A stretch of DNA of 26,172 nt, taken from positions 1 to 26,172 of the IMG/VR virus record IMGVR_UViG_2548876702_000015. The stretch is one strand, 5' to 3'. Of the stretch, positions 934-26,172 are shown piece after piece. A program made the translations under genes and the position numbers. The notes below the pieces were generated by a model, which did not search any database, had not been told where the DNA came from, and saw only the letters and a program-made list of their open reading frames with translations. The stretch's first letter is position 1, and each line of letters starts with the position of its first letter. Origin of the DNA: a virus (lineage: Duplodnaviria; Heunggongvirae; Uroviricota; Caudoviricetes).

Positions 934-2340
934 CTACCGTCCTATCGAAATATAACTGAATCTGTATTGCTGTGAGATATCACTGGTTGCCACACGCCAC
1001 GCTGAATTACTGATATGTTCAAAATTTACAGACAAAACCTGCGGGGCAGGAATCGACGGGTCTGACTGAACGGCATCAGACATAACACTGACTGAAACCA
1101 TCGGCTGATTAGGGAATGGTATAGGGAAGTGTCCACTGATAAAGCGGGTCGTGTTTCCTGCAAAAGTGCCAAACTGAACAATATATCCACCTGGTAGCCT
1201 GAACCATCCCGAGCCAGAAGCGAATGCTCCCATATCCGGTATCTGATTATCTCCTGTGCCCACATTCCGTTTTGCCGCTTCTCCCAAACCAAGGTATGCG
1301 AGAAGACCAGCTACATCCTTTCCACTCAAATTGGTAAGCGTATTGTCCAGCGGTTGTTTACCTGCCAGCGCATTAAGCATTGTCGTGGCAAAGTTCGGAT
1401 CATTCCCCAGTGCCGCCGCCAGTTCGTTCAGTGTATCCAGTGCAGCAGGTGCAGAACCCACCATTCCTGCAATCGCCGATTTCACAAAAGCCGTAGTGGC
1501 AATCTGTGTATTGTTGACCGACTGCGCCGCCGTGGGGGCTGTTGGCGTTCCGGTGAGTGCCGGACTCGACAACGGTGCTTTTAGTGCCAGCGCATTGTTA
1601 ATGGTGGTACTGAAATTCGGATCATTGTTAATGGCTGCGGCTATTTCTTTCAGCGTGTCCAGCGTGGCTGGCGCACCATTAATAAGGGCCGTCAGTGCCG
1701 CCTGTACAAACGCAGTGGTCGCAACCTGCGTGGTATTATCCCCCGCCGCTGGCGTTGGCGCTTTGGGGGTTCCGGTAAATGTCGGGCTGGCTTTTGGCGC
1801 GTACTGTGAATGCGGGTCCGGTGCGGCAAGATGTTTTGCCATCTGATCATCCGCGTACACCTTCAGCTCCAGTACCTTGTCATCCACATACTTGCGGGTT
1901 GCCAGCACTACAGCAGGGTCGATTTTCAGGGTGATATTGTCCGTGCTTCTGGTAATCAGCACCATGCGCACGGTCTGAGTACGCCCGCTACCTTCAGCCA
2001 GTTGCGGCTTATAGCTTTCCGGGCAGTTGCCCACGGCAATCAATGCCCCGGACTCATCAAACAAGCCCACTTCACGTATCCACCAACCGCCCTCGTTTTC
2101 AGGGATCACCTGTTCGGCAATAATCTGGCTGCTGTTCTGCGGGTCGATATAAAGCATATTCAGCGCAGCCCGGCGTTTCTCATTTACCAGTGCCGTCTGC
2201 TTTGCGTCCGGCGTTGGCAATACTCCACCGCCATCGCCCACCGCCATATGGGTAATTTTTAGCGGCACACCGAGCGCGGCGGCGCTGGCAAGTTTCGCCG
2301 CGCCAATATCCGTCAGCAGGGTATAAAATTTTGTGCTCAT
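934..2340 (-). CDS. H: Tail fibre protein (P2 H-like), conserved N-terminal baseplate-attachment part plus variable C-terminal receptor-binding part
   Basis: 468 aa. N-terminus MSTKFYTLLTDIGAAKLASAAALGVPLKITHMAVGDGGG is the typical P2 H-family start. Internal Ala/Thr-rich shaft repeats. Followed by G. Confidence 0.85.
   Translation of the reverse strand: MSTKFYTLLTDIGAAKLASAAALGVPLKITHMAVGDGGGVLPTPDAKQTALVNEKRRAALNMLYIDPQNSSQIIAEQVIPENEGGWWIREVGLFDESGALIAVGNCPESYKPQLAEGSGRTQTVRMVLITRSTDNITLKIDPAVVLATRKYVDDKVLELKVYADDQMAKHLAAPDPHSQYAPKASPTFTGTPKAPTPAAGDNTTQVATTAFVQAALTALINGAPATLDTLKEIAAAINNDPNFSTTINNALALKAPLSSPALTGTPTAPTAAQSVNNTQIATTAFVKSAIAGMVGSAPAALDTLNELAAALGNDPNFATTMLNALAGKQPLDNTLTNLSGKDVAGLLAYLGLGEAAKRNVGTGDNQIPDMGAFASGSGWFRLPGGYIVQFGTFAGNTTRFISGHFPIPFPNQPMVSVSVMSDAVQSDPSIPAPQVLSVNFEHISNSAWRVATSDISQQYRFSYISIGR
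1279..1304. other. Candidate 26-bp Hin/Gin/Cin/Pin-family crossover site (hix/gix-like) inside H at the constant/variable junction
   Basis: TTCTCCCAAACC-AA-GGTATGCGAGAA is an imperfect palindrome (10 of 12 half-site positions symmetric) with a central AA. It matches about 19 of 26 positions of hixL (TTCTTGAAAACCAAGGTTTTTGATAA) as recalled. It encodes LLAYLGLGEAA at H residues ~346-356. The partner site would lie upstream of the window. Confidence 0.45.
1321..1740 (-). repeat. Imperfect tandem duplication (~220-bp unit, 2 copies) inside H encoding a repeated shaft motif
   Basis: Protein residues ~201-270 and ~275-340 repeat the pattern NTTQ(V/I)ATTAFV..GAPA.LDTL.E.AAA..NDPNF.TT..NALA.K. The DNA copies are visibly similar (e.g. 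cattgt..ggatcatt.. at ~1379 and ~1596). Boundaries are approximate. Confidence 0.55.
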
Positions 2341-10782: not shown

Positions 10783-12549
10783 ATGAACACCACACTGACA
10801 CCCGCAGATCTCGATCCCCGTCGGCAGGCCATGCTGCTGTACTTTCAGGGATACCGCGTAGCCCGCATTGCTGAAATGCTGGGCGAGAAAGTTGCAACCG
10901 TTCACAGCTGGAAAAAACGCGACAAGTGGGGTGACTATGGGCCGCTGGATCAGATGCAGCTCACCACCGCCGCACGCTACTGCCAGCTCATTATGAAGGA
11001 GCACAAAGAAGGGAAAGATTTCAAAGAGATTGACCTGCTGGCGCGCCAGTCGGAACGCCACGCGCGGATCGGCAAGTTTAACAATGGCGGCAACGAAGCC
11101 GACTTAAACCCTAACGTCGCCAACCGCAACAAAGGCCCGCGCCGTCAGCCGGAAAAGAATGTCTTCACCGATGAACAGATTGAGAAGCTGGAAGAAATCT
11201 TCCATTCCTCCATGTTCAACTACCAACGCCACTGGTGGGAAGCCGGAAAAACCAACCGCATCCGCAACCTGCTGAAGTCACGCCAGATCGGCGCGACCTT
11301 TTACTTTGCCCGTGAAGCCCTGATTGACGCTCTGCTTACCGGACGTAACCAGATTTTTCTTTCCGCCAGCAAGGCACAGGCCCACGTCTTCAAACAGTAC
11401 ATCATCGACTTTGCCAAAGAAGTGGAGGTGGAGCTGAAAGGCGATCCGATGGTGCTTCCCAACGGGGCCACACTGTATTTCCTCGGCACCAATGCCCGCA
11501 CTGCCCAGAGTTACCACGGCAACCTGTATCTGGATGAATATTTCTGGATACCGAAATTCCAGGAGCTGCGCAAAGTGGCTTCTGGTATGGCTATTCACAA
11601 GAAATGGCGACAAACCTATTTTTCCACGCCATCCAGCCTGACACACAGTGCTTATCCGTTCTGGTCCGGTGCACTGTTCAACCGTGGGCGCAACAAAGCC
11701 GATAAGGTGGACATCGACCTGTCCCACAGCAATCTGGCCCCCGGCCTGCTGTGCGCAGACGGGCAATACCGCCAGATAGTCACCGTGGAAGATGCGGTGC
11801 GCGGCGGCTGCAACCTGTTCGACCTTGACCAGTTGCGCATGGAGTACAGCCCGGACGAATACCAGAACCTGCTGATGTGCGAGTTTGTGGACGATCTCGC
11901 GTCCGTGTTTCCGCTCAGCGAGCTGCAGGCGTGCATGGTGGACAGTTGGGAAGTCTGGACCGACTTTCATGCTCTGGCCCTGCGCCCGTTTGGCTGGCGC
12001 GAAGTGTGGATCGGTTATGACCCGGCAAAAGGTACGCAGAACGGCGACAGTGCCGGATGCGTGGTGGTGGCACCGCCAGCCGTGCCGGGTGGTAAGTTCC
12101 GCATTCTTGAGCGTCACCAGTGGCGCGGGATGGACTTCCGCGCCCAGGCTGACGCCATCAAAAAACTGACCGAGCAGTACAACGTGACCTACATCGGCAT
12201 CGACTCGACAGGTGTCGGCCACGGGGTTTACGAGAACGTGAAAGCGTTTTTTCCAGCCGTCCGGGAGTTTGTCTATAACCCCAACGTTAAAAACGCCCTG
12301 GTACTCAAGGCCTACGACATTATCAGCCACCGCCGTCTGGAGTTTGACGCCGGACACACCGACATTGCGCAGTCATTCATGGCAATCCGTCGCGCAACCA
12401 CCGCCAGCGGCAACCGCCCGACCTATGAAGCCAGCCGCAGCGAAGAAGCCAGCCATGCGGATCTGGCCTGGGCAACGATGCACGCACTGTTTAACGAACC
12501 GCTGCAGGGCGAATCCGCCAATACCAGCAATATTGTGGAGATTTTTTGA
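10783..12549 (+). CDS. P: Terminase large (ATPase) subunit P (P2 gpP-like)
   Basis: 588 aa, ATG at 10783. Size and divergent position relative to O as in P2. Confidence 0.9.
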   Translation: MNTTLTPADLDPRRQAMLLYFQGYRVARIAEMLGEKVATVHSWKKRDKWGDYGPLDQMQLTTAARYCQLIMKEHKEGKDFKEIDLLARQSERHARIGKFNNGGNEADLNPNVANRNKGPRRQPEKNVFTDEQIEKLEEIFHSSMFNYQRHWWEAGKTNRIRNLLKSRQIGATFYFAREALIDALLTGRNQIFLSASKAQAHVFKQYIIDFAKEVEVELKGDPMVLPNGATLYFLGTNARTAQSYHGNLYLDEYFWIPKFQELRKVASGMAIHKKWRQTYFSTPSSLTHSAYPFWSGALFNRGRNKADKVDIDLSHSNLAPGLLCADGQYRQIVTVEDAVRGGCNLFDLDQLRMEYSPDEYQNLLMCEFVDDLASVFPLSELQACMVDSWEVWTDFHALALRPFGWREVWIGYDPAKGTQNGDSAGCVVVAPPAVPGGKFRILERHQWRGMDFRAQADAIKKLTEQYNVTYIGIDSTGVGHGVYENVKAFFPAVREFVYNPNVKNALVLKAYDIISHRRLEFDAGHTDIAQSFMAIRRATTASGNRPTYEASRSEEASHADLAWATMHALFNEPLQGESANTSNIVEIF

Positions 12550-13595
12550 TGGGAAAGAGTAAGAAGAACCGCGCTGCGGCGACGAAACAGATCCAGCTTA
12601 AAAGTCAAACTACAGCCGAAGCATTCAGCTTCGGCGATCCCGTTCCTGTTCTGGACCGCCGTGAACTGCTGGACTATGTGGAATGCGTACAGATGGATCG
12701 CTGGTATGAGCCGCCTGTCAGCTTTGACGGACTGGCACGAACCTTCCGCGCCGCCGTGCATCACAGCTCACCAATTGCGGTGAAATGCAACATTCTGACC
12801 AGTACCTACATCCCTCACCCGCTGCTCAGCCAGCAGGCTTTTTCACGTTTTGTGCAGGACTATCTGGTATTTGGTAACGCCTACCTGGAGAAACGCACGA
12901 ACCGCTTCGGTGAAGTTATCGCCCTTGAGCCTGCTCTGGCAAAATACACCCGACGCGGGTTAGACCTGGATACCTACTGGTTTGTGCAATACGGTATGAC
13001 AACCCAGCCGTATCAGTTCACGAAAGGCAGCATTTTTCATCTGATGGAACCGGACATCAACCAGGAGATCTACGGCCTGCCAGGTTATCTTTCTGCCATT
13101 CCATCAGCCCTGCTCAACGAGTCCGCCACGCTGTTCCGCCGGAAGTATTATATTAACGGCAGTCATGCAGGCTTCATCATGTACATGACCGATGCCGCGC
13201 AGAACCAGGAGGATGTGAACAACCTCCGCAATGCAATGAAAAGTGCCAAAGGGCCAGGCAACTTCCGCAACCTGTTTATGTACTCTCCTAACGGCAAAAA
13301 GGACGGGCTTCAGATTATCCCGTTGTCAGAAGTCGCGGCGAAGGATGAGTTTCTGAATATCAAGAACGTGAGCCGGGACGACATGATGGCGGCACACCGT
13401 GTGCCGCCGCAAATGATGGGGATAATGCCTAATAATGTTGGGGGCTTTGGTGATGTGGAGAAGGCTAGTCGTGTTTTTGTCCGCAACGAACTGATGCCCC
13501 TGCAGAAACAGCTACAAGAACTTAACTATTGGCTAGGCGAAGAAGCAATACGCTTTGATGCCTACTCCCTAAATTTCACAAACGATTCTTTTTGA
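12549..13595 (+). CDS. Q: Portal protein Q (P2 gpQ-like)
   Basis: ATG at 12549 overlapping the P stop (TGATG); ~348 aa. Position downstream of P, next to the expected cos region. Confidence 0.9.
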   Translation: MGKSKKNRAAATKQIQLKSQTTAEAFSFGDPVPVLDRRELLDYVECVQMDRWYEPPVSFDGLARTFRAAVHHSSPIAVKCNILTSTYIPHPLLSQQAFSRFVQDYLVFGNAYLEKRTNRFGEVIALEPALAKYTRRGLDLDTYWFVQYGMTTQPYQFTKGSIFHLMEPDINQEIYGLPGYLSAIPSALLNESATLFRRKYYINGSHAGFIMYMTDAAQNQEDVNNLRNAMKSAKGPGNFRNLFMYSPNGKKDGLQIIPLSEVAAKDEFLNIKNVSRDDMMAAHRVPPQMMGIMPNNVGGFGDVEKASRVFVRNELMPLQKQLQELNYWLGEEAIRFDAYSLNFTNDSF

Positions 13596-13640
13596 TAAAT
13601 ATGCTGGGCCCCCCCCCGGCATTTACTCACGCCCCAATTT
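13596..13640. other. Candidate cos (cohesive-end) region just downstream of the portal gene, containing a 9-C homopolymer
   Basis: In P2-family genomes cos lies next to the 3' end of Q. The reverse complement here reads GGGGCGTGAGTAAATGCCGGGGGGGGGCCCAGCAT, which resembles the GC-rich P2/186 cohesive ends (GGCG(A/T)GGCGGGGAAAGCA(C/T), as recalled) only loosely. Confidence 0.3.
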
Positions 13641-15377
13641 CCATACTGAATTATACGATAAAATACTTAGTTCAGCAGCTCTTGACCTCATATGATCGGG
13701 CGTCCATTCTCCTTGATATTTATTTTCAAATTCATCAATAAAAATTTTAACTAGCGCATATTGTGATTGTTTATAAATTTCAAGCTTATCCACAACAGAC
13801 TTATTTCCAGCTTTTTCATTTAATTCTTTTGAAAGTGGTAATAAATTTCCTATCATGCTATATACTTCAGAATCCCCCACACTCTGAGGCTGAATATGCT
13901 CTAATGTTAATGAATCAGGCATATACTCCCCCGTTTTCATGTGATGTAACTCAAGTCTATTAAAAATGTACTGAATCAACCTTTTATTTTTCAACTCTTG
14001 ATTTGAAAATTTAAGCATAACAAACTTTTCAACAAACATATTAATGTCTGGTTTTCTCTTCACCAACATTTCAAGCAAAGACTTTATTACTTGTCTATTA
14101 CTAGCTTTAGTAGAACCTTCATCCACTAAAGCCCTAGCAGCTTTAGCATACGCACTTTCAATACCTGATGGTCGCAATGAACAAATAGCATTAAACATAA
14201 AATGAAAGCGTTCAATTGACAGCACTGCATTATTCATATCAACAAGTTTTAGCGTTCCTCTTGCTCTTGCCTTAAATAAAGATAACAAAAATGGTTTATT
14301 CTGAGATATGTTAAACAGCCTTAATGCCTGCAAACCTCGATAAACTGGTTTCATTTCCAGTTCAGGAAAATCCTGTTCTGTAGGCGATGATATTTTCACA
14401 TATATCTCGGCATCTGAAAGTAGCTCATCAATGAACGCTGAAGCATCAATGTCGCCTTTTTTCCACTTATCCAGAAAAGCTTTATAAAGAGTGTCACTAC
14501 TTACATAAGAATATTTTGACACCCACCAATGACGGATAAATGTCTCGATAGAACCGACACCATTACGACTAGCAATTATTTGCCTAATTTTATTCCATTT
14601 AGTTTTTGCATCATCATCAGGATGTGTGCCATTCAGTTTCTTAAATAATTTGTTTTTTATAAGATCTACATAACTTAAGTTTAATCCCCTAGCATTCAGA
14701 GTTTCAAAGATTGTATAAGCTTCATCTTCATCATTAACTGTAATATAAATCACTTTCAGATACCGTAGAACTTGATCCCGCACAGCCTTCAACGCTTCCA
14801 AGTAGATAAATTTCTCTCTATCTACTCCTAATGTCTGGCAAAGATTATCTTCTGAAAGATACTCAGTTAAATCATTATATGAAGATTGCAAGTTTCTTTC
14901 TTCAAGGGACTCCGGTCCTTCATTTCTCTTATCAATATGCTGAATGTTGTTTTGAAAGTATGGCTTAGGAGTTTCATTAACTAATTTAAAAAAAGGTCTG
15001 CCATCGTCATCCATACCAGATATATAATTATTATATATTGATTGAGCTACAGCCAACTCATTTATCAACTTAAATTTATCACATAATGCTGATAACAATA
15101 TAGTAAGAGTCGTAAGACGTTGTTGACCATCTACAATCATCAGCTCAGAGCTAGTTTCCTGCCCGACCAAAACGAGAGCACCGATGAAATACTCATCATA
15201 TTGATACTGCCCATCCTCCTGGTAATGAATATTGGAAACTATATCATGCCAAAGTTCACTTACTTGTTCCTTCCCCCAAGAATATTCTCTTTGGAATCTA
15301 GGGACTATATATTTTTTATTTACAGATAACACGTTTGTTAAGGTTCGAGCATTTGCTTGCAGTTCCACTGAGGCCAC
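13623..15377 (-). CDS. DUF262 (ParB-like, DGQQR motif) + DUF1524 (His-Me finger) nuclease, GmrSD-like candidate type IV restriction / anti-phage protein
   Basis: 584 aa. N-terminal motifs ..YIVPRFQREYSW.. and IVDGQQRLTTL, and FETLNARG, are DUF262 hallmarks. C-terminal LEHIQPQS ... NLLPLSKELNEKAGNK fits the DUF1524 pattern. AT-rich relative to flanking phage genes. Start is GTG at 15377. Confidence 0.7.
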   Translation of the reverse strand: MASVELQANARTLTNVLSVNKKYIVPRFQREYSWGKEQVSELWHDIVSNIHYQEDGQYQYDEYFIGALVLVGQETSSELMIVDGQQRLTTLTILLSALCDKFKLINELAVAQSIYNNYISGMDDDGRPFFKLVNETPKPYFQNNIQHIDKRNEGPESLEERNLQSSYNDLTEYLSEDNLCQTLGVDREKFIYLEALKAVRDQVLRYLKVIYITVNDEDEAYTIFETLNARGLNLSYVDLIKNKLFKKLNGTHPDDDAKTKWNKIRQIIASRNGVGSIETFIRHWWVSKYSYVSSDTLYKAFLDKWKKGDIDASAFIDELLSDAEIYVKISSPTEQDFPELEMKPVYRGLQALRLFNISQNKPFLLSLFKARARGTLKLVDMNNAVLSIERFHFMFNAICSLRPSGIESAYAKAARALVDEGSTKASNRQVIKSLLEMLVKRKPDINMFVEKFVMLKFSNQELKNKRLIQYIFNRLELHHMKTGEYMPDSLTLEHIQPQSVGDSEVYSMIGNLLPLSKELNEKAGNKSVVDKLEIYKQSQYALVKIFIDEFENKYQGEWTPDHMRSRAAELSILSYNSVWKLGRE

Positions 15378-15509
15378 CTACTTTAGTTGTTTGTATTACA
15401 CAGTTTTATAGCATTGGAGTTTGAATGACAACCCGTTGCGCGCGCTCGTATCCCCGCCACGCCTGCCCGCTTTATGTAGTGGTTTTCATGCAGATGCATG
15501 CTCTACGCA

Positions 15510-15540
15510 AAAGCCCGCCAGTTCTGGCGGGCTTTTGCAA
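15510..15540 (-). terminator. Rho-independent terminator (bidirectional hairpin) after the three-gene operon
   Basis: GCCCGCC-agttct-GGCGGGC stem-loop flanked by A-run and T-run (caaaaGCCCGCCagttctGGCGGGCttttgc), 60-90 nt downstream of the stop of the 15600..16016 gene. Confidence 0.6.
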
Positions 15541-15599
15541 AAACGATCCTCAAACGATCATGCGATTTCATGCAGCATAGTCATGCAAAGTAGAAACTG

Positions 15600-16016
15600 C
15601 TATTTAACGTCCGGCGTTTGCGCTGTGGGGGATACTTTTCCATCTAGCGTATTTACAATTGAGAGGGGGTAAATTCCCATTTCAATTCCACAGATCACGT
15701 CGTAACGAGCCTGCGCTTTCTCTCGCATTTCTGGAGAAACAGGGGACGATGGTGCATTTAAAACTGCTTCGGCTTGCTTCTTCAGAGCCTTCAACCGCCT
15801 TTTCAGTTTGATTTCTTGCGGATCAACAGCATAAATCGTCCATGCAAAAGTAAAAACTTCGCTTAAAAGAATTGACACCATCGGTATTGAAGCAATGTAA
15901 AGGTCTTTCCATGTTGGATCTGTAATGAAGCTAGCCAGCTTTATTAGGAAAAGGCCTACACCGCCGCCACCTGTAACACCGACTGCTTTACCGCTTGTTT
16001 TCTTTTGTTCAGGCAT
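15600..16016 (-). CDS. Small membrane protein (2 predicted TM helices), third gene of the uncharacterised three-gene operon
   Basis: ATG at 16016-16014 with a strong AGGAAGGAG SD, 2 nt after the stop of the preceding gene; 138 aa. Hydrophobic segments GVTGGGGVGLFLIKLASFI and IPMVSILLSEVFTFAWTIYAV, with a Lys/Arg-rich helix between. Confidence 0.5.
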   Translation of the reverse strand: MPEQKKTSGKAVGVTGGGGVGLFLIKLASFITDPTWKDLYIASIPMVSILLSEVFTFAWTIYAVDPQEIKLKRRLKALKKQAEAVLNAPSSPVSPEMREKAQARYDVICGIEMGIYPLSIVNTLDGKVSPTAQTPDVK

Positions 16017-16272
16017 GAGAGGCTGACTCCTTCCTCTCACGCTTATTTTTCTCTGCTATATCATCGATGAGCTTTATTAACTCATCATCATTGTTTATAT
16101 AAATATTTGTTTTATAGACATTTTTGTTTGCATCAGTATAAGTGATAGAAACTTTTGTTTCGACAATAACTCGATCGAGCAGGCTACGTATAGCCACTCT
16201 AGCACCTATAAATATAGCTGGAGCTGCAACAAGCAGCCCCAACCATCCTAACACACTAATATCTATAGACAT
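16009..16272 (-). CDS. Small single-pass membrane protein, second gene of the three-gene operon
   Basis: 87 aa, ATG at 16272-16270, 2 nt after the stop of the 304-aa gene. N-terminal TM helix (ISVLGWLGLLVAAPAIFIGARVAI) then a charged soluble tail. Confidence 0.5.
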   Translation of the reverse strand: MSIDISVLGWLGLLVAAPAIFIGARVAIRSLLDRVIVETKVSITYTDANKNVYKTNIYINNDDELIKLIDDIAEKNKRERKESASHA

Positions 16273-16274
16273 TT

Positions 16275-17189
16275 TTAATCCGCATCAGGTTTTATTTTTC
16301 TATCTTTGGCGGCAAAGTGTCGACCCACTTTGATGATCGATAACTTTTCGTCTACCTGGCCACCGGAATCTTTCACAATTTTCTTCATCTTCACAGCAAA
16401 CAATTCGCCAAAAATTTTGGGGGCGTCTGGTCCAGTAACAAGCTTGATGAACTCATTATCTTCCATTCTGACATTGCGCTTTTCACCGCCAAACTCAACA
16501 CGCCAGCCACTTTTTTTGTCAGTATGCGCCGAAACGAATGTCACGGTTGTTTCAAATTCGTCAACTTCTTCTTTGGTTTCAAAGAGAACTTTTGGCGACT
16601 TAAACTCTTCTGCCTCATCTTTATGAATTTTGAGGATTTCTTTCTTAGAGGTGCGCGATTTTTTTACCACAAAATTGTCGATACCATCTTGTAACAGAGG
16701 CTGTCTGACAAACGCGTCAACAGCCTTACGAATCTCTGGGGCATTAACGATTTTTTCGACATCTTCAGAGCAAACAATCTCTTCACCATCGACTTTCAGC
16801 TTAACTTTGTCACTACCGTTAGCTTTCTCGACTATGTCGATCTTACGCCCGTTAAGCTTCTTGAGAACCTCTAAAACTGTAGCACCGCCAACGGCTAAAG
16901 GAATGGCTGACAAACCTAAAATTTGTACAACATCTTTAGCATTAGCTAGATGTTGTACAACCTCAATATCAAACCCAAAGGAACCGGCTATCAATTCAGC
17001 GTCAACGTTAACTTCAATGTCTCGCCCTCCGTTTACAATCTCATTTGCAGAGTAGATAGCCTCACCTAGCCCCTGCAAACTTTTCGCAAACGAAAGAATA
17101 TCCATCTTATGATCGTCGAGAGCTTTGCCTTGATACACAATACTTACTGATTGAGTCTTATCCGCCATTGAGTTCAGATCCGTTGCCAA
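16275..17189 (-). CDS. Hypothetical soluble protein (~297-304 aa), first gene of the three-gene operon; no family recognised
   Basis: Long ORF with coding-like composition, Lys/Glu/Asp-rich C-terminal half. TTG at 17189 or ATG at 17168 are possible starts. AT-rich accessory context. Confidence 0.55.
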   Translation of the reverse strand: MATDLNSMADKTQSVSIVYQGKALDDHKMDILSFAKSLQGLGEAIYSANEIVNGGRDIEVNVDAELIAGSFGFDIEVVQHLANAKDVVQILGLSAIPLAVGGATVLEVLKKLNGRKIDIVEKANGSDKVKLKVDGEEIVCSEDVEKIVNAPEIRKAVDAFVRQPLLQDGIDNFVVKKSRTSKKEILKIHKDEAEEFKSPKVLFETKEEVDEFETTVTFVSAHTDKKSGWRVEFGGEKRNVRMEDNEFIKLVTGPDAPKIFGELFAVKMKKIVKDSGGQVDEKLSIIKVGRHFAAKDRKIKPDAD

Positions 17190-17304
17190 TAAAATGCGCG
17201 CGATTTTACGCCCATCACTATGTTTAATCTATCTATTAATCATTTATCCCTCTAGCTGTCTACTATCGGACTCAAAAAACATGACTCATTACAAACGAAA
17301 CCTA

Positions 17305-17538
17305 TCAATGCAGCCAGCAGTCGTCTTCCCACACCTTCTGCATAATTTTCAGCACTTGTTTTCTTTCTTCGTCCAGTTGCAGTCCGGTCAGTTCCACACC
17401 GTTAGAGCTACCTTTGCGGATACGAATTACCGTTTTGGGATACAGGGGGCGCAGATTGCGGTAAAGCTCGGATTCAAGGGCATCCAGGGTAGACTGGCTA
17501 ATCTTCTGCTCTTTATCGATCATTATTTCAATGCGCAT
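17305..17538 (-). CDS. DinI-family protein (SOS-induced; Tum/DinI-like)
   Basis: 77 aa from ATG 17538-17536 with a GAGGTG SD. MRIEIMIDKEQ..LDALESELYRNLRPLYPKTVIRIRKGSSNGVELTGL..KQVLKIMQKVWEDDCW parallels E. coli DinI (MRIEVTIAK...) as recalled. Downstream of a LexA box. Confidence 0.6.
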   Translation of the reverse strand: MRIEIMIDKEQKISQSTLDALESELYRNLRPLYPKTVIRIRKGSSNGVELTGLQLDEERKQVLKIMQKVWEDDCWLH

Positions 17539-17548
17539 AAAAGTCACC

Positions 17549-17737
17549 TCAGCTGATGACATCCATTGAGCGGTTGTATTCGTGGGTTCTGATTTTTGCC
17601 ATGAGTTCATCTGTCAGTTCAGAAACCCACTGCAAAGCCAGCCCCTTCTCTTCATCACTACACTCACTAGCCGCTACAAGCTTAAGAAAAAAATCAATGC
17701 GCTGGAGCTTCAAAGACTCCAAAAAATAGTCCTGCAT
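17549..17737 (-). CDS. Small hypothetical protein (62 aa), first gene of the LexA-controlled operon
   Basis: ATG at 17737-17735 with a GGAGGA SD. Its stop overlaps the SD of the DinI-like gene (translational coupling). Confidence 0.45.
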   Translation of the reverse strand: MQDYFLESLKLQRIDFFLKLVAASECSDEEKGLALQWVSELTDELMAKIRTHEYNRSMDVIS

Positions 17738-17780
17738 CTTTCCTCCTATGACACCACAAGCAATACTGTATGCATAACCA

Positions 17781-17796
17781 CTGTTTATATTTACAG
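17781..17796 (-). promoter_or_regulatory. LexA (SOS) box overlapping the promoter of the small-protein/DinI-like operon
   Basis: CTGT-TTATATTT-ACAG (cCACTGTttatatttACAGTAta) fits the CTGT-N8-ACAG consensus with an AT-rich centre. On the transcribed strand a TATACT -10 overlaps the box and a TTTACA -35-like hexamer lies upstream. About 40 nt upstream of the ATG at 17737. Confidence 0.6.
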
Positions 17797-17890
17797 TATA
17801 TAATAATCTTACTGATGTAAAACGTTTTTTTACGTTCATCAGCCTGATATGCCTGGTATTATTAAGAGCACGAATTGTTAACCCGCGTAA

Positions 17891-20263
17891 TTAATACAGG
17901 TTTCGCCACTTATCATCTTCCTGCAAACGCTGGTTCCGATAGAAGATACGCAGGCCTGCTCCTGACGGAATACTGCCGCCGCGAAGGAGTAAATCGACCT
18001 CTTTCTCGCTGCCATCAAATCCTCTGGACTTCAGTTCATAGACGAGCTGCTGTCGCTGATGGTCTGTAATTCGCTGTTTGTAGTCTTTACGCCGTTTCGG
18101 TTTCACCAGGCGTAACCTTGCAGCCAGTTCCCGGCGCTCTTTTTTGCTCATACTGTGCAGGTAATCGTGCAACTCCTTGTCATCCATGCGGGTAATGTCC
18201 GTCCTGGTATCCCCATCAGCTGATTTGTCTTTCCCTTGTTGGTTCAAATTTTCAGCAAGGGGACAGTTATTGCCACGAGTCCAAGGGGCGCAAGCGCCCT
18301 GGTCGGCTGCCGCCTCCTGAACATCAACGGCCTTACGAACCATTTTCCACTTCACGGCATGAGTGCAGATCTTGCCCTCTGCAATAGGTGACCAGATGCC
18401 ATAAATACGAATGCCGTGATCGCCATAGGCGGTCGGCTCTTCGTTGATTTCATAAGCGGTTCTGATGAGGTGATATTTGCGGGGAACCAGTACGCCGCCC
18501 TGCTTCATGATGTAGGTGGCAAAACAACCAGCATCAGCAGCAGCCAGGATGGCATCAAGGCGCGGGTTATCCAGTACCGGCGCACCTGCTTTTTTGTCCC
18601 CCTGTTGCCTTGCCGCCTGACCAGCCAGCAATCGCAGTTCACGGTAAGCCTGACGCCCCGGAATGCCAAAGAAGCGGAATTGCTGAACACGATGCAGAGA
18701 CGCCCAGGCATTAACGTATTCAGCATTATCACGTAGGGATTTCCCCGTTTCCTTGCTGATCTCGCCAGCCAGACCACGCCCGTCAATGTTCTTACTGATG
18801 TATTTCGCGATGTAGCTTGTTGGCGTACCTTTGCGCGGGTTAATCAACTCAGACTTAAAGCGCGGCCCAGTGTTATTGCCCAGTTCCTCGCGGTCTTCAC
18901 GGATGGCAAACTTACGCAGTAATGCAGTGATGGCGCGGCGGTCTTTTTTGCGCATAAAACACAACAGGTGCCAGTGAACTGTACCGTCATGATGCGGCTC
19001 AGCCACCCGCACGCCATACCACCGCAATCCGGCTTTGTGCATCGCCTTACGAAATGCAGCAAACATGCCGACCAGATAATCACTGCTTTGTCTTACCGTC
19101 GCATTTGTCCAAGTTGGGTTGGGCCTGCCATTATTTAGCGTGGAATGGAAACGTGACGGACAGGTGATGGTGTAGAAAACGGCGCAGTCACCGCGCATTT
19201 CCGCGATAAGCTCCAGGCCTTTAACACAGGCCATCATCTCATTGCGGCGATGCGCAGGGTTGCTGCTGCTGGCGTTTACCACATCCTCCATGTCCAGCGT
19301 GTCGCCGTCTTCGTTCACCAGTTCATGAGAACGAAAAAACTCCAGCGACTTACGGCGCTGCTCACGTTTATGCATCACGGCTTCATAGCTGACATAGGGA
19401 GATGCTTTTTTGCTGACCAGGCAGACAGCACGCAACTGCTCTTCCCGCCATTCGCAACGCATCTTCCATAATTTCCGGTACCACCAGTCAGCGCACAACA
19501 TACGCGCCAGCGAACCCGGAATGAGTTCATAGGGCACGGGTTTACGGCGGTTTCTTTTCCGGCGGAGTTGCTCAAACGCAGGCGGGATGACATCCAGACG
19601 CAGGGTTTCCGCTGCCACCTTTTCCCATGTCTTGCGGATTTCTTCTGGCTTAACGTCATCGGTGACATACAAATCGCCACAAGCTGCATCAAGGCACATG
19701 CTCATATGCGCAGCTACCAGGGTGGACAGGCGTTTCACCTGATCCTGACTCATTTCAGGCAGGATCAGCAGGCCGTCCAGCCCTTCATGGCTTGCCATAA
19801 AGCGAAAAGAAGTGGATAGCTGACAGTCGCGTACATGCTCCAGCCGTTCCAGACATGGCTTAATCGTCTCACGCAAATAGCGGGAATAAGCCTTTGGCCT
19901 GCCCAGGCTGCTGAAGTATTCAATACGTTGCATCAGTGGCTTGCTGATATGGGAAGGCTGGGCATTAACGTCCGCCAGAATGACCATATCTGGATTAAAA
20001 CGCTGCTGCTCATGCGCCAGCTTTGCCCGACTAATGAGCTTATCCTGCTCCATTTCGCGCTGGACAGGATCACGGGATTCATTAAAGAAATAACGCTCCC
20101 AGACCTGATCACTCAGTGCCTCGCGGCGCAGCTGTTCCTGCTCGTTATCGGCAGCGTACAGAGCGATCAGGTTTGAAAGCGCAGAAACTGAAGATTGCTC
20201 TTCCGTCTCTACGTAAGGATTGATTGCTTTTTTCTCAGCATTCCAGGAATAGCTGTAGTTCAT
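17891..20263 (-). CDS. A: Replication initiation endonuclease A (rolling-circle HUH nickase, P2 gpA-like)
   Basis: ~790 aa from ATG 20263-20261 ([12 protein letters not shown]). HUH-type motif (..[10 protein letters not shown]..). Position at the end of the early operon. Confidence 0.85.
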
Positions 20264-21093
20264 TACGCAATCTCCAGTTCGAGCTGTGAAGGCTGCAAAC
20301 CATTCGACAGCCAATCAGAAACTGAAGGTGGGCGAACAGCTTCAATTGCACCTTTTAAAATTGCGCAACGGTTTTTCAGAATGACAGCTTTCAGCTCCTT
20401 TTCCGTCAGATTGCGCGAATACTCAGCCTCCTGAATAGCCCGCGTCAGCTCAGGATATTTGCTATTAAATTTGGGGACATTGCAGGCAAGATTTGTACTG
20501 TCGGCAGTCGCCAGTGGGTAATTTCCCAACACACGACCGTCAAGCATGCGCAAACCATGAACAGCTGTTTTGAAATTGTGTCGGCAATAAATTGCTTCAA
20601 AAGCGTCCTGCATACGACGATGCCAGTGCGCAGTTCTGATAGCCGCATATTCACCAGACGATCCAAAGCAGACACGAGGCCATTCACGACATAGCTCGAT
20701 AAGCCGATCGATTGACTCGTGCAGATGCCAGACGGGAGTTGCCTTCCCGTAGAACATTTTCGGAACTTCGTTTATCAGGGCATCATTGTCACGTTCACCT
20801 CCGTCCACAACATCAGGAATGACAAAAAAAGCGACCTTAGGATGGTGGTAATAGTTCAGGAGCCATTTATAAAAATCACTCCAGTTAATTTTTAGCCCAC
20901 GCACCCATGCAGAAAATGCGCCGTTATCAATGCCGACGACCTGAGCGTGCTGAATGGACGCCGCAATCTGATCTGGTCGTACATAGGAGACGAAAGCGCC
21001 AGCTCCGCTCACCGCAATACGATGAACGTCGCCAGCACTTCCCCAGACAGGCGTCCCATGGAAATGATGAATTCCGTGGTGCATTTCTTTCAC
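20263..21093 (-). CDS. Hypothetical protein (~273 aa), His-rich N-terminus, co-transcribed between Dam and A; function unknown
   Basis: Track start is GTG at 21093; ATG at 21084-21082 gives [15 protein letters not shown]... Stop overlaps the A start (TAATG). No family confidently recognised. Confidence 0.55.
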
Positions 21094-24154: not shown

Positions 24155-24724
24155 GTGGATTTCAATAGCGGCGGTAAGAAAGCCATAGAACGTTTAGTTG
24201 AAGCATATGGGTTCGGTACCCGTCAGGCTCTCTGTGATCATTTAGGTGTTTCTAAGAGCACCATGGCAACGCGCTATATGCGTGATATTTTTCCAGCAGA
24301 TTGGGTAATCCAGTGCGCCCTTGAAACGGGCACCTCGCTTAATTGGCTAACAACAGGGCATGGTTCAAAGCAAGCATCAGCAAATACAAATACTATAGAA
24401 GTAGAAAAATATTTATTGTCTGATGGAGCATTGCAGAAAGACGGTTTTTATATTTTTGATAAGGAATTTCTACCCTCTACGTTTAAAAAACCTTTTGTCA
24501 TCACAGATAACAATTCTGAATTTATTTGTGATAAAGAATTTGATGATATACGTGATGGTAAATGGGTAATAAGTATTGATGGCGAAATAACGATCCGTGA
24601 CATTACTCGTTTACCCGGTGGAAGAATCTTCGTCGAGGGTGGAAACAGAGCCTTCGAATGCAAGATAGAAGACATTGAAATAATTGGTAAAATTATAAGT
24701 TTAACAGTCAAGTATGTTAAATAG
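24155..24724 (+). CDS. cI: Immunity repressor CI (coliphage 186 CI-like)
   Basis: GTG at 24155 with a GGAGG SD 4 nt upstream; ~189 aa. N-terminal HTH ..LVEAYGFGTRQALCDHLGVSKSTMATRYMRD..ALETGTSLNWLTTG parallels 186 CI (..ICEAYGFSQK..ALETGANLQWLLTG) as recalled. Confidence 0.7.
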   Translation: MDFNSGGKKAIERLVEAYGFGTRQALCDHLGVSKSTMATRYMRDIFPADWVIQCALETGTSLNWLTTGHGSKQASANTNTIEVEKYLLSDGALQKDGFYIFDKEFLPSTFKKPFVITDNNSEFICDKEFDDIRDGKWVISIDGEITIRDITRLPGGRIFVEGGNRAFECKIEDIEIIGKIISLTVKYVK

Positions 24725-24739
24725 TACCGGGAGGAAACT

Positions 24740-24931
24740 ATGCTTGGTAAGGTATTTTTTGTGGTTTTGTCATGTTCTTTGTTATTAAACCCACTAACTA
24801 CCTATGCTAGAAATTATCCCTGCTCAGGGAAAAAGGGAGGTGTTTCTCACTGTACCTCAGATGGCAAATTCGTTTGCAATGATGGAACTATTAGTAAATC
24901 CAAAAAAATCTGTACTAAAAACTCACGATAA
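24740..24931 (+). CDS. Small secreted cysteine-rich protein (moron) between cI and int
   Basis: 63 aa, ATG at 24740 with a GGGAGG SD. Signal-peptide-like N-terminus ([23 protein letters not shown]). Mature ~40 aa with 4 Cys ([33 protein letters not shown]). AT-rich. Confidence 0.5.
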
Positions 24932-25119
24932 CTTTTGCTTTTATATCTGCGTCTAAAATAAAAATGAGCCGCAGGTTAACCGCAAAAGTTACATGCTCAC
25001 ATAGCAAAAAGAATAGCCAACTTCATGATGGCTTCAGTGAGATGTATGGTCGTAGGATTTCATACATTGACACTGGTTATACATACAGTAAAAATGCTCT
25101 CTACTGGAGGGCATTTTTT

Positions 25120-26172
25120 ATGGCAGTACGAAAACTCACCACAGGGAAATGGCTTTGCGAATGTTACCCCGCCGGACGTAGTGGACGTCGTGTGCGTAAA
25201 CAATTCGCCACCAAAGGCGAAGCTCTGGCTTTTGAGCGCCACACGATGGAAGAAACCGAAGCAAAGCCCTGGCTGGGTGAATCAGTGGATCGTCGAACAC
25301 TGAAAGACGTAGTTGAGCTATGGTTCAAACTACATGGTAAATCTCTGACAGCTGGGCAGCATGTCTATGACAAATTGCTGTTGATGGTTGACGCTCTGGG
25401 TAATCCTCTTGCAACCGATCTCACCTCTAAAATGTTTGCCCACTATCGAGATAAACGCCTGACAGGCGAGATCTACTTCAGCGAGAAATGGAAGAAAGGA
25501 GCAAGCCCGGTCACCATTAACCTGGAGCAAAGCTATCTAAGTAGTGTTTTTAGCGAACTATCCCGTCTGGGCGAATGGTCGTATCCGAACCCACTGGAGA
25601 ACATGCGAAAATTCACCATCGCAGAAAAAGAGATGGCATGGCTTACCCATGAGCAGATTGTTGAATTGCTGGCTGATTGCAAACGTCAGGACCCAATTCT
25701 GGCACTGGTAGTTAAGATATGCTTAAGCACAGGCGCACGCTGGCGTGAAGCCGTAAATCTTACCCGCTCCCAGGTGACCAAATACCGAATTACCTTTGTC
25801 AGAACGAAGGGGAAGAAAAACAGAAGCATCCCTATCAGTAAAGAGCTTTACGAAGAGATCATGGCGCTTGATGGGTTCAATTTCTTTACAGACTACTATT
25901 TTCAATTTTTATCCGTGATGGAAAAAACGTCTATCGTGCTCCCTCGCGGTCAACTCACACACGTTCTGCGCCATACGTTTGCGGCGCACTTCATGATGTC
26001 GGGTGGAAACATTCTCGCCTTACAAAAAATTCTCGGACACCACGATATAAAAATGACTATGCGTTACGCACATCTGGCACCAGATCATCTGGAAACGGCG
26101 CTCCGTTTCAATCCTCTGGCAACGCTGCCAAGTGGCGACAAAGTGGCGGCAGCGGTTGGCATTACCCCGTAA
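25120..26172 (+). CDS. int: Tyrosine integrase (P2/186 Int family)
   Basis: ATG at 25120 with a GGAGG SD; 350 aa starting MAVRKLTTGKW.., paralleling P2 Int (MAIKKLDDGRYEV..). Catalytic-region motifs ..LSTGARWREA.. and ..HVLRHTFA..MTMRYAHL. Stop is at the window edge. Confidence 0.85.
   Translation: MAVRKLTTGKWLCECYPAGRSGRRVRKQFATKGEALAFERHTMEETEAKPWLGESVDRRTLKDVVELWFKLHGKSLTAGQHVYDKLLLMVDALGNPLATDLTSKMFAHYRDKRLTGEIYFSEKWKKGASPVTINLEQSYLSSVFSELSRLGEWSYPNPLENMRKFTIAEKEMAWLTHEQIVELLADCKRQDPILALVVKICLSTGARWREAVNLTRSQVTKYRITFVRTKGKKNRSIPISKELYEEIMALDGFNFFTDYYFQFLSVMEKTSIVLPRGQLTHVLRHTFAAHFMMSGGNILALQKILGHHDIKMTMRYAHLAPDHLETALRFNPLATLPSGDKVAAAVGITP

Follow-up and report, generated by a model that had tools for sequence, protein, structure and literature searches.

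The DNA analysed here is the virus record IMGVR_UViG_2548876702_000015 of IMG/VR (positions 1 to 26,172; the whole stretch is called the window below), which is part of a P2/186-like (Peduoviridae) prophage. On the minus strand, at 17305..17840, it carries a locus that is most probably the operon through which SOS induces this P2-like prophage of the 186/Fels-2 type, with the tum gene split into tumA and tumB. A first reading made from the sequence alone had described a LexA-repressed two-gene operon resembling the Tum module of coliphage 186, lying between gene A and cos as in 186. Every element of the operon was recovered where that reading had placed it, and the description was borne out by the position directly after the GPA replicase gene (PF05840), by the operator and by the homologies of both proteins. 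Past gene A the minus strand holds, in this order, an AT-rich spacer of 150 bp, a LexA palindrome, a strong AGGAGG ribosome-binding site, an open reading frame (ORF) of 62 amino acids, a gap of 10 nt and an ORF of 77 amino acids, and such placement (immediately following gene A on its strand and ahead of the cos/portal end) is shared by 186, PSP3 and Fels-2. The sequence features, their conservation and the homologies described below are direct observations on the following elements.

17305..17840, minus strand: predicted LexA-controlled tum operon (tumA-like plus tumB-like), directly downstream of A
17816..17821, minus strand: candidate -35, TTTACA (5/6 against TTGACA; 17 bp from TACTGT)
17793..17800, minus strand: candidate -10 region, TACTGT (17798..17793) or TATACT (17800..17795), both under LexA box 1
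17779..17798, minus strand: LexA box 1, TACTGTAAATATAAACAGTG (17/20 consensus, 24 bits)
17764..17783, minus strand: LexA box 2, CAGTGGTTATGCATACAGTA (14.5 bits)
17549..17737, minus strand: tumA-like gene, 62 amino acids plus stop, predicted antirepressor, AGGAGG upstream
17305..17538, minus strand: tumB-like gene, 77 amino acids plus stop, DinI family (PF06183)
24155..24724, plus strand: 186-type CI repressor, presumed antirepressor target (PF07022 and PF16452)

Operator and promoter of the tum operon

The core CTGT-N8-ACAG at 17781..17796 has no second copy in the 26-kb window. Taken alone it is weak evidence, since 24 of 100 shuffles contained at least one copy of the bare pattern. The full 20-mer TACTGTAAATATAAACAGTG agreed with the consensus in 17 of 20 positions, a match not reached in any of the 100 shuffles, and on a LexA weight matrix built from 23 chromosomal E. 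coli sites it scored 24 bits, the highest value in the window and above 20 of the 23 training sites. Box 1 was also conserved in an upstream-region alignment of 11 close relatives. On these figures the near-consensus LexA box of the sequence-only reading stands, and the weight-matrix scoring which it had proposed as a check puts the site at the top of the window.

The strongest evidence for the box being real is comparative, namely its recurrence across nine loci (the window, 186, Fels-2, PSP3, ESSI-2, ESSI2_ev015, ENT90 and two Yersinia phages). In all nine of these divergent peduovirus loci the corresponding small ORF was accompanied by a perfect-core LexA box (17-19 of 20 positions), and in eight of them the box was located 38-61 bp upstream of that ORF. 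The ninth is ENT90, where the box lies just inside the annotated ORF, whose start was probably mis-called. The ENT90 'putative prophage protein' in question (1459..1698 of the compared locus) starts upstream of its own LexA box, and its real start is probably MDNDLQK....

In the window, box 1 does not stand by itself. The cores at 17796..17781 and 17781..17766 are two 16-bp LexA cores which share one G (17781), a double operator that had gone unmentioned in the sequence-only reading and that is conserved in the 11 phages. Box 2 scores 14.5 bits, a value reached by about 1.3e-4 of the positions in the window. Conserved islands in the 11-phage alignment were TTTTACA, ATATACTGTA, CAGTGG and (A/G)TACAGT; eight bases inside box 2 were variable, CAGTGG and the right half (A/G)TACAGT were retained with ST15phi14.1 (CATTGG) as the sole exception, and the flanks of the operator had diverged in SopEPhi, ST437phi4.1 and ST13phi12.1. 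A single LexA box was found in 186, PSP3 and the ESSI-2 types.

Such an arrangement resembles the double SOS operators of colicins and klebicins (e.g. cna of colicin N), which likewise consist of two 16-bp LexA cores sharing one base and have in common the sequence TATACTGTA...A(A/C)CAGTGGTTAT...TACAGT. The 50-nt Fels-2 version of the operator matched more than 1100 plasmid records, mostly at 80-95% identity and most of them mobilizable plasmids, and in the two Col-type plasmid records inspected the match preceded a colicin N gene and a klebicin-type gene, respectively, by about 40 bp. The likeness may reflect either common descent or convergence on LexA binding. There are also differences, since the colicin operators control a toxin whereas that of the window controls a predicted antirepressor, and box 1 of the window overlaps the -10 whereas the boxes of colicin promoters follow a -10 of their own (TAATTT in those inspected). 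Colicin double SOS boxes are bound by two LexA dimers, with undetectable basal expression, and give tight repression or delayed induction (PMC2994835). By analogy, we infer that the lineage of the window keeps its antirepressor under especially tight, high-threshold SOS control; since LexA would have to leave two adjoining boxes, it would probably take strong or sustained damage for the promoter to fire.

As for the promoter itself, the TTTTACA block and its spacing to the LexA box were invariant across the 11 phages despite the diverged flanks. The p95 promoter of 186 is annotated as TTCACA-18-TACTGT, its -10 TACTGT being the left arm of the LexA operator, and the analogous elements of the window are TTTACA (17821..17816), a spacer of 17 bp and TACTGT (17798..17793). 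The sequence-only reading had placed the box over a -10 of TATACT (17800..17795). Box 1 does cover the -10 region, as that reading held, but TATACT has no good -35 at 16-18 bp, and TACTGT, two bases further downstream, offers an alternative. Either candidate is covered by box 1.

The TumA-like and TumB-like proteins

The 62-amino-acid protein is 98% identical to STM2728 of Fels-2 and recurs at 100% identity among many phages of Klebsiella and E. coli; stand-alone ORFs of ESSI-2-type phages are 41-49% identical to it. Alignment with 186 Tum had been proposed as a check by the sequence-only reading, and its outcome was divided: BLASTP returned nothing, so that profile methods were needed, and these revealed homology over residues 1-45. 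By hhalign, residues 1-45 of the window-family profile aligned with residues 1-45 of the 186 Tum N-terminal family at a probability of 96.6% (E 5e-10), the N-terminal parts of the two proteins being about 20% identical. In a reciprocal search of PHROG, residues 1-69 of 186 Tum matched phrog_698, the family of the window protein, at E 6e-6, and the window protein itself matched phrog_8554 at E 2e-8 and phrog_1993, which is the family of PSP3 TumA (3e-32), at E 2e-3. A Yersinia 'tum protein' served as a bridging sequence, as it was weakly matched by the 62-amino-acid protein and matched also by the N-terminus of 186 Tum.

AlphaFold2 predicted the protein as a helical hairpin of two helices (predicted local distance difference test score, pLDDT, 92). 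Foldseek with this hairpin gave generic helical hairpins and none at E <0.001, and a sequence search of the PDB with the TumA profile gave nothing meaningful. The protein has no Pfam, NCBIfam or PADLOC family, and PHROGs label it 'unknown function'. Relatives from a word-indexed protein search were all >80% identical among the 120 matches listed, and an exhaustive search of representatives with a narrow profile yielded 86 clusters, nearly all short stand-alone proteins, without reaching 186 Tum or any fused form of about 146 amino acids. It is named 'hypothetical protein' by RefSeq in the E. coli records listed, which are a part of the more than a thousand with the module; naming it would sharpen the prediction of which P2-like prophages are damage-inducible. 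The name 'Levan regulatory protein', given by some sources, is backed by no family search. A reading of 96 amino acids from the ATG at 17839, chosen by some gene callers, is almost certainly wrong, because promoter and operator would fall inside it.

TumA-like ORFs with a LexA box occur without a DinI gene in ESSI-2, ESSI2_ev015, ENT90 and YenM_324, which points to TumA as the essential part. Those of ESSI-2 and YenM_324 (about 1501..1700 of the compared loci) are unannotated in public records. Together with the separate DinI-like product of 186 (see below), the stand-alone ORFs support an antirepressor function for TumA and an accessory, modulating one for TumB.

That the 77-amino-acid protein belongs to the DinI family, as the sequence-only reading had it, was corroborated by Pfam PF06183 (E 4e-21; a score of 75.4 bits with the cut-off at 24.2; all 63 profile positions). 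Alignment with Tum and DinI, also proposed there, gave 40% identity to residues 71-145 of 186 Tum (E 2e-23) and 29% to E. coli DinI, the latter being lower than to the C-terminal half of Tum. The protein further matched phrog_189 at positions 71-148 and aligned end to end with the solved DinI structure 1GHH (E 6e-6), and it scored 41.4 bits against the NCBIfam DinI equivalog NF007893, below the cut-off of 111. On these comparisons the 77-amino-acid protein is read as a phage paralogue nearer to the C-terminus of Tum, not as a DinI orthologue.

Both ORFs are present and adjacent as first described, and their presumed coupling was refined in one respect, since they do not overlap and lie 10 nt apart. 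The GAGG ribosome-binding site of tumB contains the stop codon of tumA, and the close spacing is conserved across the phages compared; translational coupling from the tumA-like to the tumB-like ORF is a plausible prediction. A small hairpin over the tumA stop codon and the tumB ribosome-binding site (17560..17543) was considered as a conserved feature and rejected, being absent in SopEPhi and ST437phi4.1.

The CI repressor, the proposed mode of induction and competing explanations

The CI-like repressor noted at 24155..24724 by the sequence-only reading proved to be of the 186 type, with 33% identity to 186 CI (E 9e-39) and the Pfam families Phage_CI_repr and Phage_CI_C. Peptidase_S24 was matched only below threshold (16.6 against 23.3 bits), by the C-terminal half of the profile alone. 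Induction by self-cleavage of CI was considered and is disfavoured on this ground; by analogy with 186 the repressor is presumably not cleaved via RecA, and with no autocleavage domain recognisable above threshold another induction route would be needed. GenBank describes 186 Tum as inhibiting DNA binding by CI, and Tum is reported to bind its cognate repressor and to prevent operator binding (PMC3121763). On the minus strand at 24692..24720, pointing back into the 3′ end of cI, a TTAACA-17-TATAAT (11/12) was also seen, which may be a chance match or an antisense promoter.

The pairing of TumA with CI was compared among phages. The best relative of the window CI among 50,697 phage records is 58% identical. 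Six phages (the window, Kp4860-7, 813R9, Cartapus, Kp4846-2 and Kp4865-2) have an identical TumA, and their CI repressors are just 41-58% identical pairwise. The opposite combination is seen in ST15phi14.1 and ST437phi4.1, with CIs 97% and TumAs 82% identical. Within the six, the N-terminal domains of CI have a mean identity of 72% (58-82%), and the linker and C-terminal domains one of 33% (25-50%). Because the divergence of CI is concentrated outside the DNA-binding domain, TumA probably contacts the conserved N-terminal domain of CI, and by contacting conserved surfaces there it may act across immunity types.

Drawing on the literature on 186, PSP3 and colicins for LexA binding, antirepressor activity, the N-terminal target and the role of TumB, induction would proceed as follows. 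In the lysogen, LexA on the double operator would cover the -10 region and the promoter start, and tumA and tumB would be silent. DNA damage would activate RecA and lead to self-cleavage of LexA, the promoter probably firing only when damage is strong or sustained. TumA, the 62-amino-acid helical hairpin, would then be made and bind CI (24155..24724), most likely at its N-terminal DNA-binding domain; TumA-bound CI would cease to bind its operators, and the early lytic promoter would be derepressed. The co-expressed, DinI-like TumB may bind RecA filaments and tune the strength or timing of the SOS signal.

Several points weigh against this scheme. Support for the window sequence is all computational. 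Scanning for a sigma-70 consensus gave no promoter on the minus strand of the tum site, as neither -10 candidate passed, and box 2 is weak by itself at 14.5 bits. BLASTP gave no alignment of the 62-amino-acid protein with 186 Tum, and it is from profile comparison, across about 45 residues, that the TumA-Tum homology is known. For PSP3 TumA, the source of the antirepressor role is a personal communication that was cited at second hand (PMC3121763). In our own reading of the alignment, the TumB helix has fewer acidic residues than that of DinI, for which reason RecA binding by TumB is not assured. Finally, the variants of TumA and CI do not co-vary, a pattern that fits a conserved interface but would also fit a target other than CI.

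This last point leads to the possibility that TumA is an SOS-induced inducer whose target is not the N-terminal domain of CI but its C-terminal oligomerisation domain, a different conserved early protein (Apl or CII, for example) or a host factor. We consider this unlikely. The identical TumA found with CIs 41-58% identical, and the 97%-identical CIs found with TumAs 82% identical, would suit it, and so would the identity of CII and A in the same phages (81-99%), which tracks TumA at least as well as the N-terminal domain of CI does. However, 186 Tum is annotated in GenBank as an inhibitor of CI DNA binding and Tum binds its cognate repressor (PMC3121763), and a target in the C-terminal part of CI agrees poorly with an identity of 25-50% there, against 58-82% for the N-terminal domain, among phages with identical TumA. 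Quite unlikely, in our judgement, is an operon acting as an SOS-modulating moron that tunes RecA through the DinI-like protein to the advantage of host or prophage, with the 62-amino-acid protein an unrelated accessory and induction brought about otherwise. LexA-controlled DinI homologues are common in prophages, and their deletion from the Gifsy phages left induction unaffected (PMC3121763); the 62-amino-acid family is without a Pfam, NCBIfam or PADLOC model, carries the PHROGs label quoted above and gave the empty BLASTP against Tum. Against such a moron stand the profile-level homology to the Tum N-terminus, a position, order and operator the same as in 186 tum, and a CI lacking an autocleavage domain above threshold. 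The TumA-like ORFs that have a LexA box and no DinI gene are, moreover, the opposite of what a DinI-centred operon predicts. The sequence-only reading had offered a RecA-modulating DinI moron as its alternative, which finds no support as a reading in its own right: the DinI gene belongs to the tum module as one of its conserved components and is not separately acquired cargo.

It is highly improbable that the LexA-like site is a chance AT-rich palindrome, the ORFs being expressed only in lytic growth by read-through from gene A. The 24 of 100 shuffles with a CTGT-N8-ACAG and the promoter scan that passed nothing are what such an account would expect. It is contradicted by the 20-mer match unequalled in 100 shuffles and by a score of 24 bits that beats most of the E. 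coli sites used for the matrix, by the boxes being conserved islands within diverged upstream regions and the box recurring in nine distant phages, and by the annotation of the 186 counterpart as the SOS-dependent promoter p95. SOS induction through a split tum remains the preferred reading of the locus.

Neighbouring features, spread and known relatives

The other features of the window which bear on the operon are listed here.

17891..20314, minus strand: replication gene A (Pfam Phage_GPA, PF05840)
12546..13595: portal gene
13623..17189, minus strand: low-GC defence cargo as a whole, directly downstream of tumB
16275..17168, minus strand: PADLOC PDC-S42 candidate (E 9e-44)
16009..16272, minus strand: small ORF, no family match
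15600..16040, minus strand: small ORF, no family match
13623..15377, minus strand: GmrSD/HEC-06 type IV restriction enzyme
25067..25095, plus strand: candidate for a second LexA-controlled promoter, comprising TTGACA, the LexA box CACTGGTTATACATACAGTA (25071..25090) and AAAAAT (23.5 bits)

Homology to the related phages ends exactly at the stop codon of tumB. The 3.7 kb past it, on the same strand, are cargo of low guanine-cytosine (GC) content, with 30-45% GC where the phage core genes next to it have about 52-54%, and the cargo site is the gpA-gpQ region, a known defence hotspot of P2-like phages (PMC9122126). A terminator was looked for after tumB and none was found, the RNA fold of 17180..17320 being no better than shuffles (z 0.5). 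With neither a terminator nor a stable structure behind tumB, transcripts of the SOS promoter may run on into the defence cargo; in the annotation of 186, orf97 belongs to the p95 transcript.

The box CACTGGTTATACATACAGTA, which was not among the observations of the sequence-only reading, has the second-best LexA score of the window (23.5 bits). The promoter scan found TTGACA-17-AAAAAT around it (10/12 matches), and it is located about 30 bp upstream of the int ATG at 25120 (int, 25120..26172). It is retained in Kp4860-7/4LV2017 (leader 97% identical) and in 813R9 (leader 80% identical). The annotation of 813R9 shows a cargo gene separating cI from int, and in the unannotated Kp4860-7 the match positions put cI about 1.7 kb from the int leader, implying cargo there as well. 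No such box was seen in Fels-2 or Cartapus, in which int directly adjoins cI. The int leader was present in 803 of 5426 E. coli genomes, and no paper describing its LexA box was found in a literature search. Between cI and int, at 24740..24931 on the plus strand, there is a Cys-rich ORF of 63 amino acids whose hydrophobic N-terminus resembles a signal peptide; it matches phrog_6000 (unknown function, E 2e-34) and no Pfam family, and is a PGAP hypothetical in E. coli 13E0767.

Taken together, these features allow the tentative idea, possible but doubtful, of a broad-specificity TumA within a three-point LexA circuit made up of the double operator, the int promoter and the possible cargo read-through. 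Such a TumA would recognise the conserved N-terminal DNA-binding domain in many 186-type CI repressors that are otherwise divergent, and, if this is true, a single TumA made under SOS could act in trans on heteroimmune P2-like prophages of the same cell and induce them. In this lineage the colicin-type double operator would let tumAB respond only to a high level of damage, an int promoter of its own under LexA repression would supply integrase where cargo uncouples int from cI, and tum read-through would make the adjacent defence-hotspot cargo damage-inducible.

The 536-bp tum module was present in 1125 of 5426 complete E. coli genomes. In E. coli 13E0767 it is 100% identical, in a prophage that adjoins rcdA/ybjJ and has the same layout as the window. 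As these 1125 genomes carry it and a split tum has already been described, the module is the ordinary, known split tum of Fels-2 and PSP3. The finding is confirmatory, and it correctly identifies how a class of prophages that is very common in E. coli, Salmonella and Klebsiella is switched to induction. Modest leads are offered by the double SOS box, by the invariant TumA found with diverse CIs and by the LexA box at int, which bear on how tightly such prophages are kept in check and on whether they cross-induce.

In Fels-2 and PSP3 tum was reported to be split by a stop codon into two genes (PMC3121763, crediting Bunny et al. 2002), and the upstream gene of PSP3 to carry the antirepressor activity (PMC3121763). 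The annotation of PSP3 describes tumA as 'similar to 5' end 186 tum; UV induction of prophage' and tumB as 'similar to dinI and 3' end of 186 tum'; a literature search on the names tumA and tumB gave no match. Both phages agree with the window in position, gene order, sizes (62 or 60 amino acids, then 77) and an upstream LexA box. Fels-2 is the closer, as the window protein pair is 98% and 97% identical to its STM2728 and STM2726.1 and its upstream region is nearly identical, both SOS boxes included, although its CI is only about 38-43% identical to that of the window. PSP3 TumA is a distant family member (phrog_1993, matched by the window protein at E 2e-3), and PSP3 has one LexA box. The cargo past tumB in Fels-2 and PSP3 is unlike that of the window.

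Phage 186, like the window, has a 186-type CI and a LexA-repressed promoter after gene A whose -10 lies inside the LexA box. Its Tum (146 amino acids) corresponds to both window proteins, the N-terminal approximately 45 residues being homologous to the 62-amino-acid protein and the C-terminal 75 residues 40% identical to the 77-amino-acid protein. It differs in having both parts fused in one reading frame and one LexA box instead of two. The DinI-like part is also made separately in 186, from an internal GTG start, and is annotated as modulating SOS induction. A further parallel is provided by the dinI-gfoA/gftA operons of Gifsy-1, -2 and -3, in which a DinI homologue and a small antirepressor acting on a non-cleavable repressor are controlled by LexA (PMC3121763). 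They resemble the window in combining a LexA-controlled DinI homologue with a small antirepressor, but dinI comes first, so that the order is reversed, the phages are lambdoid, and their antirepressors and repressors belong to other families.

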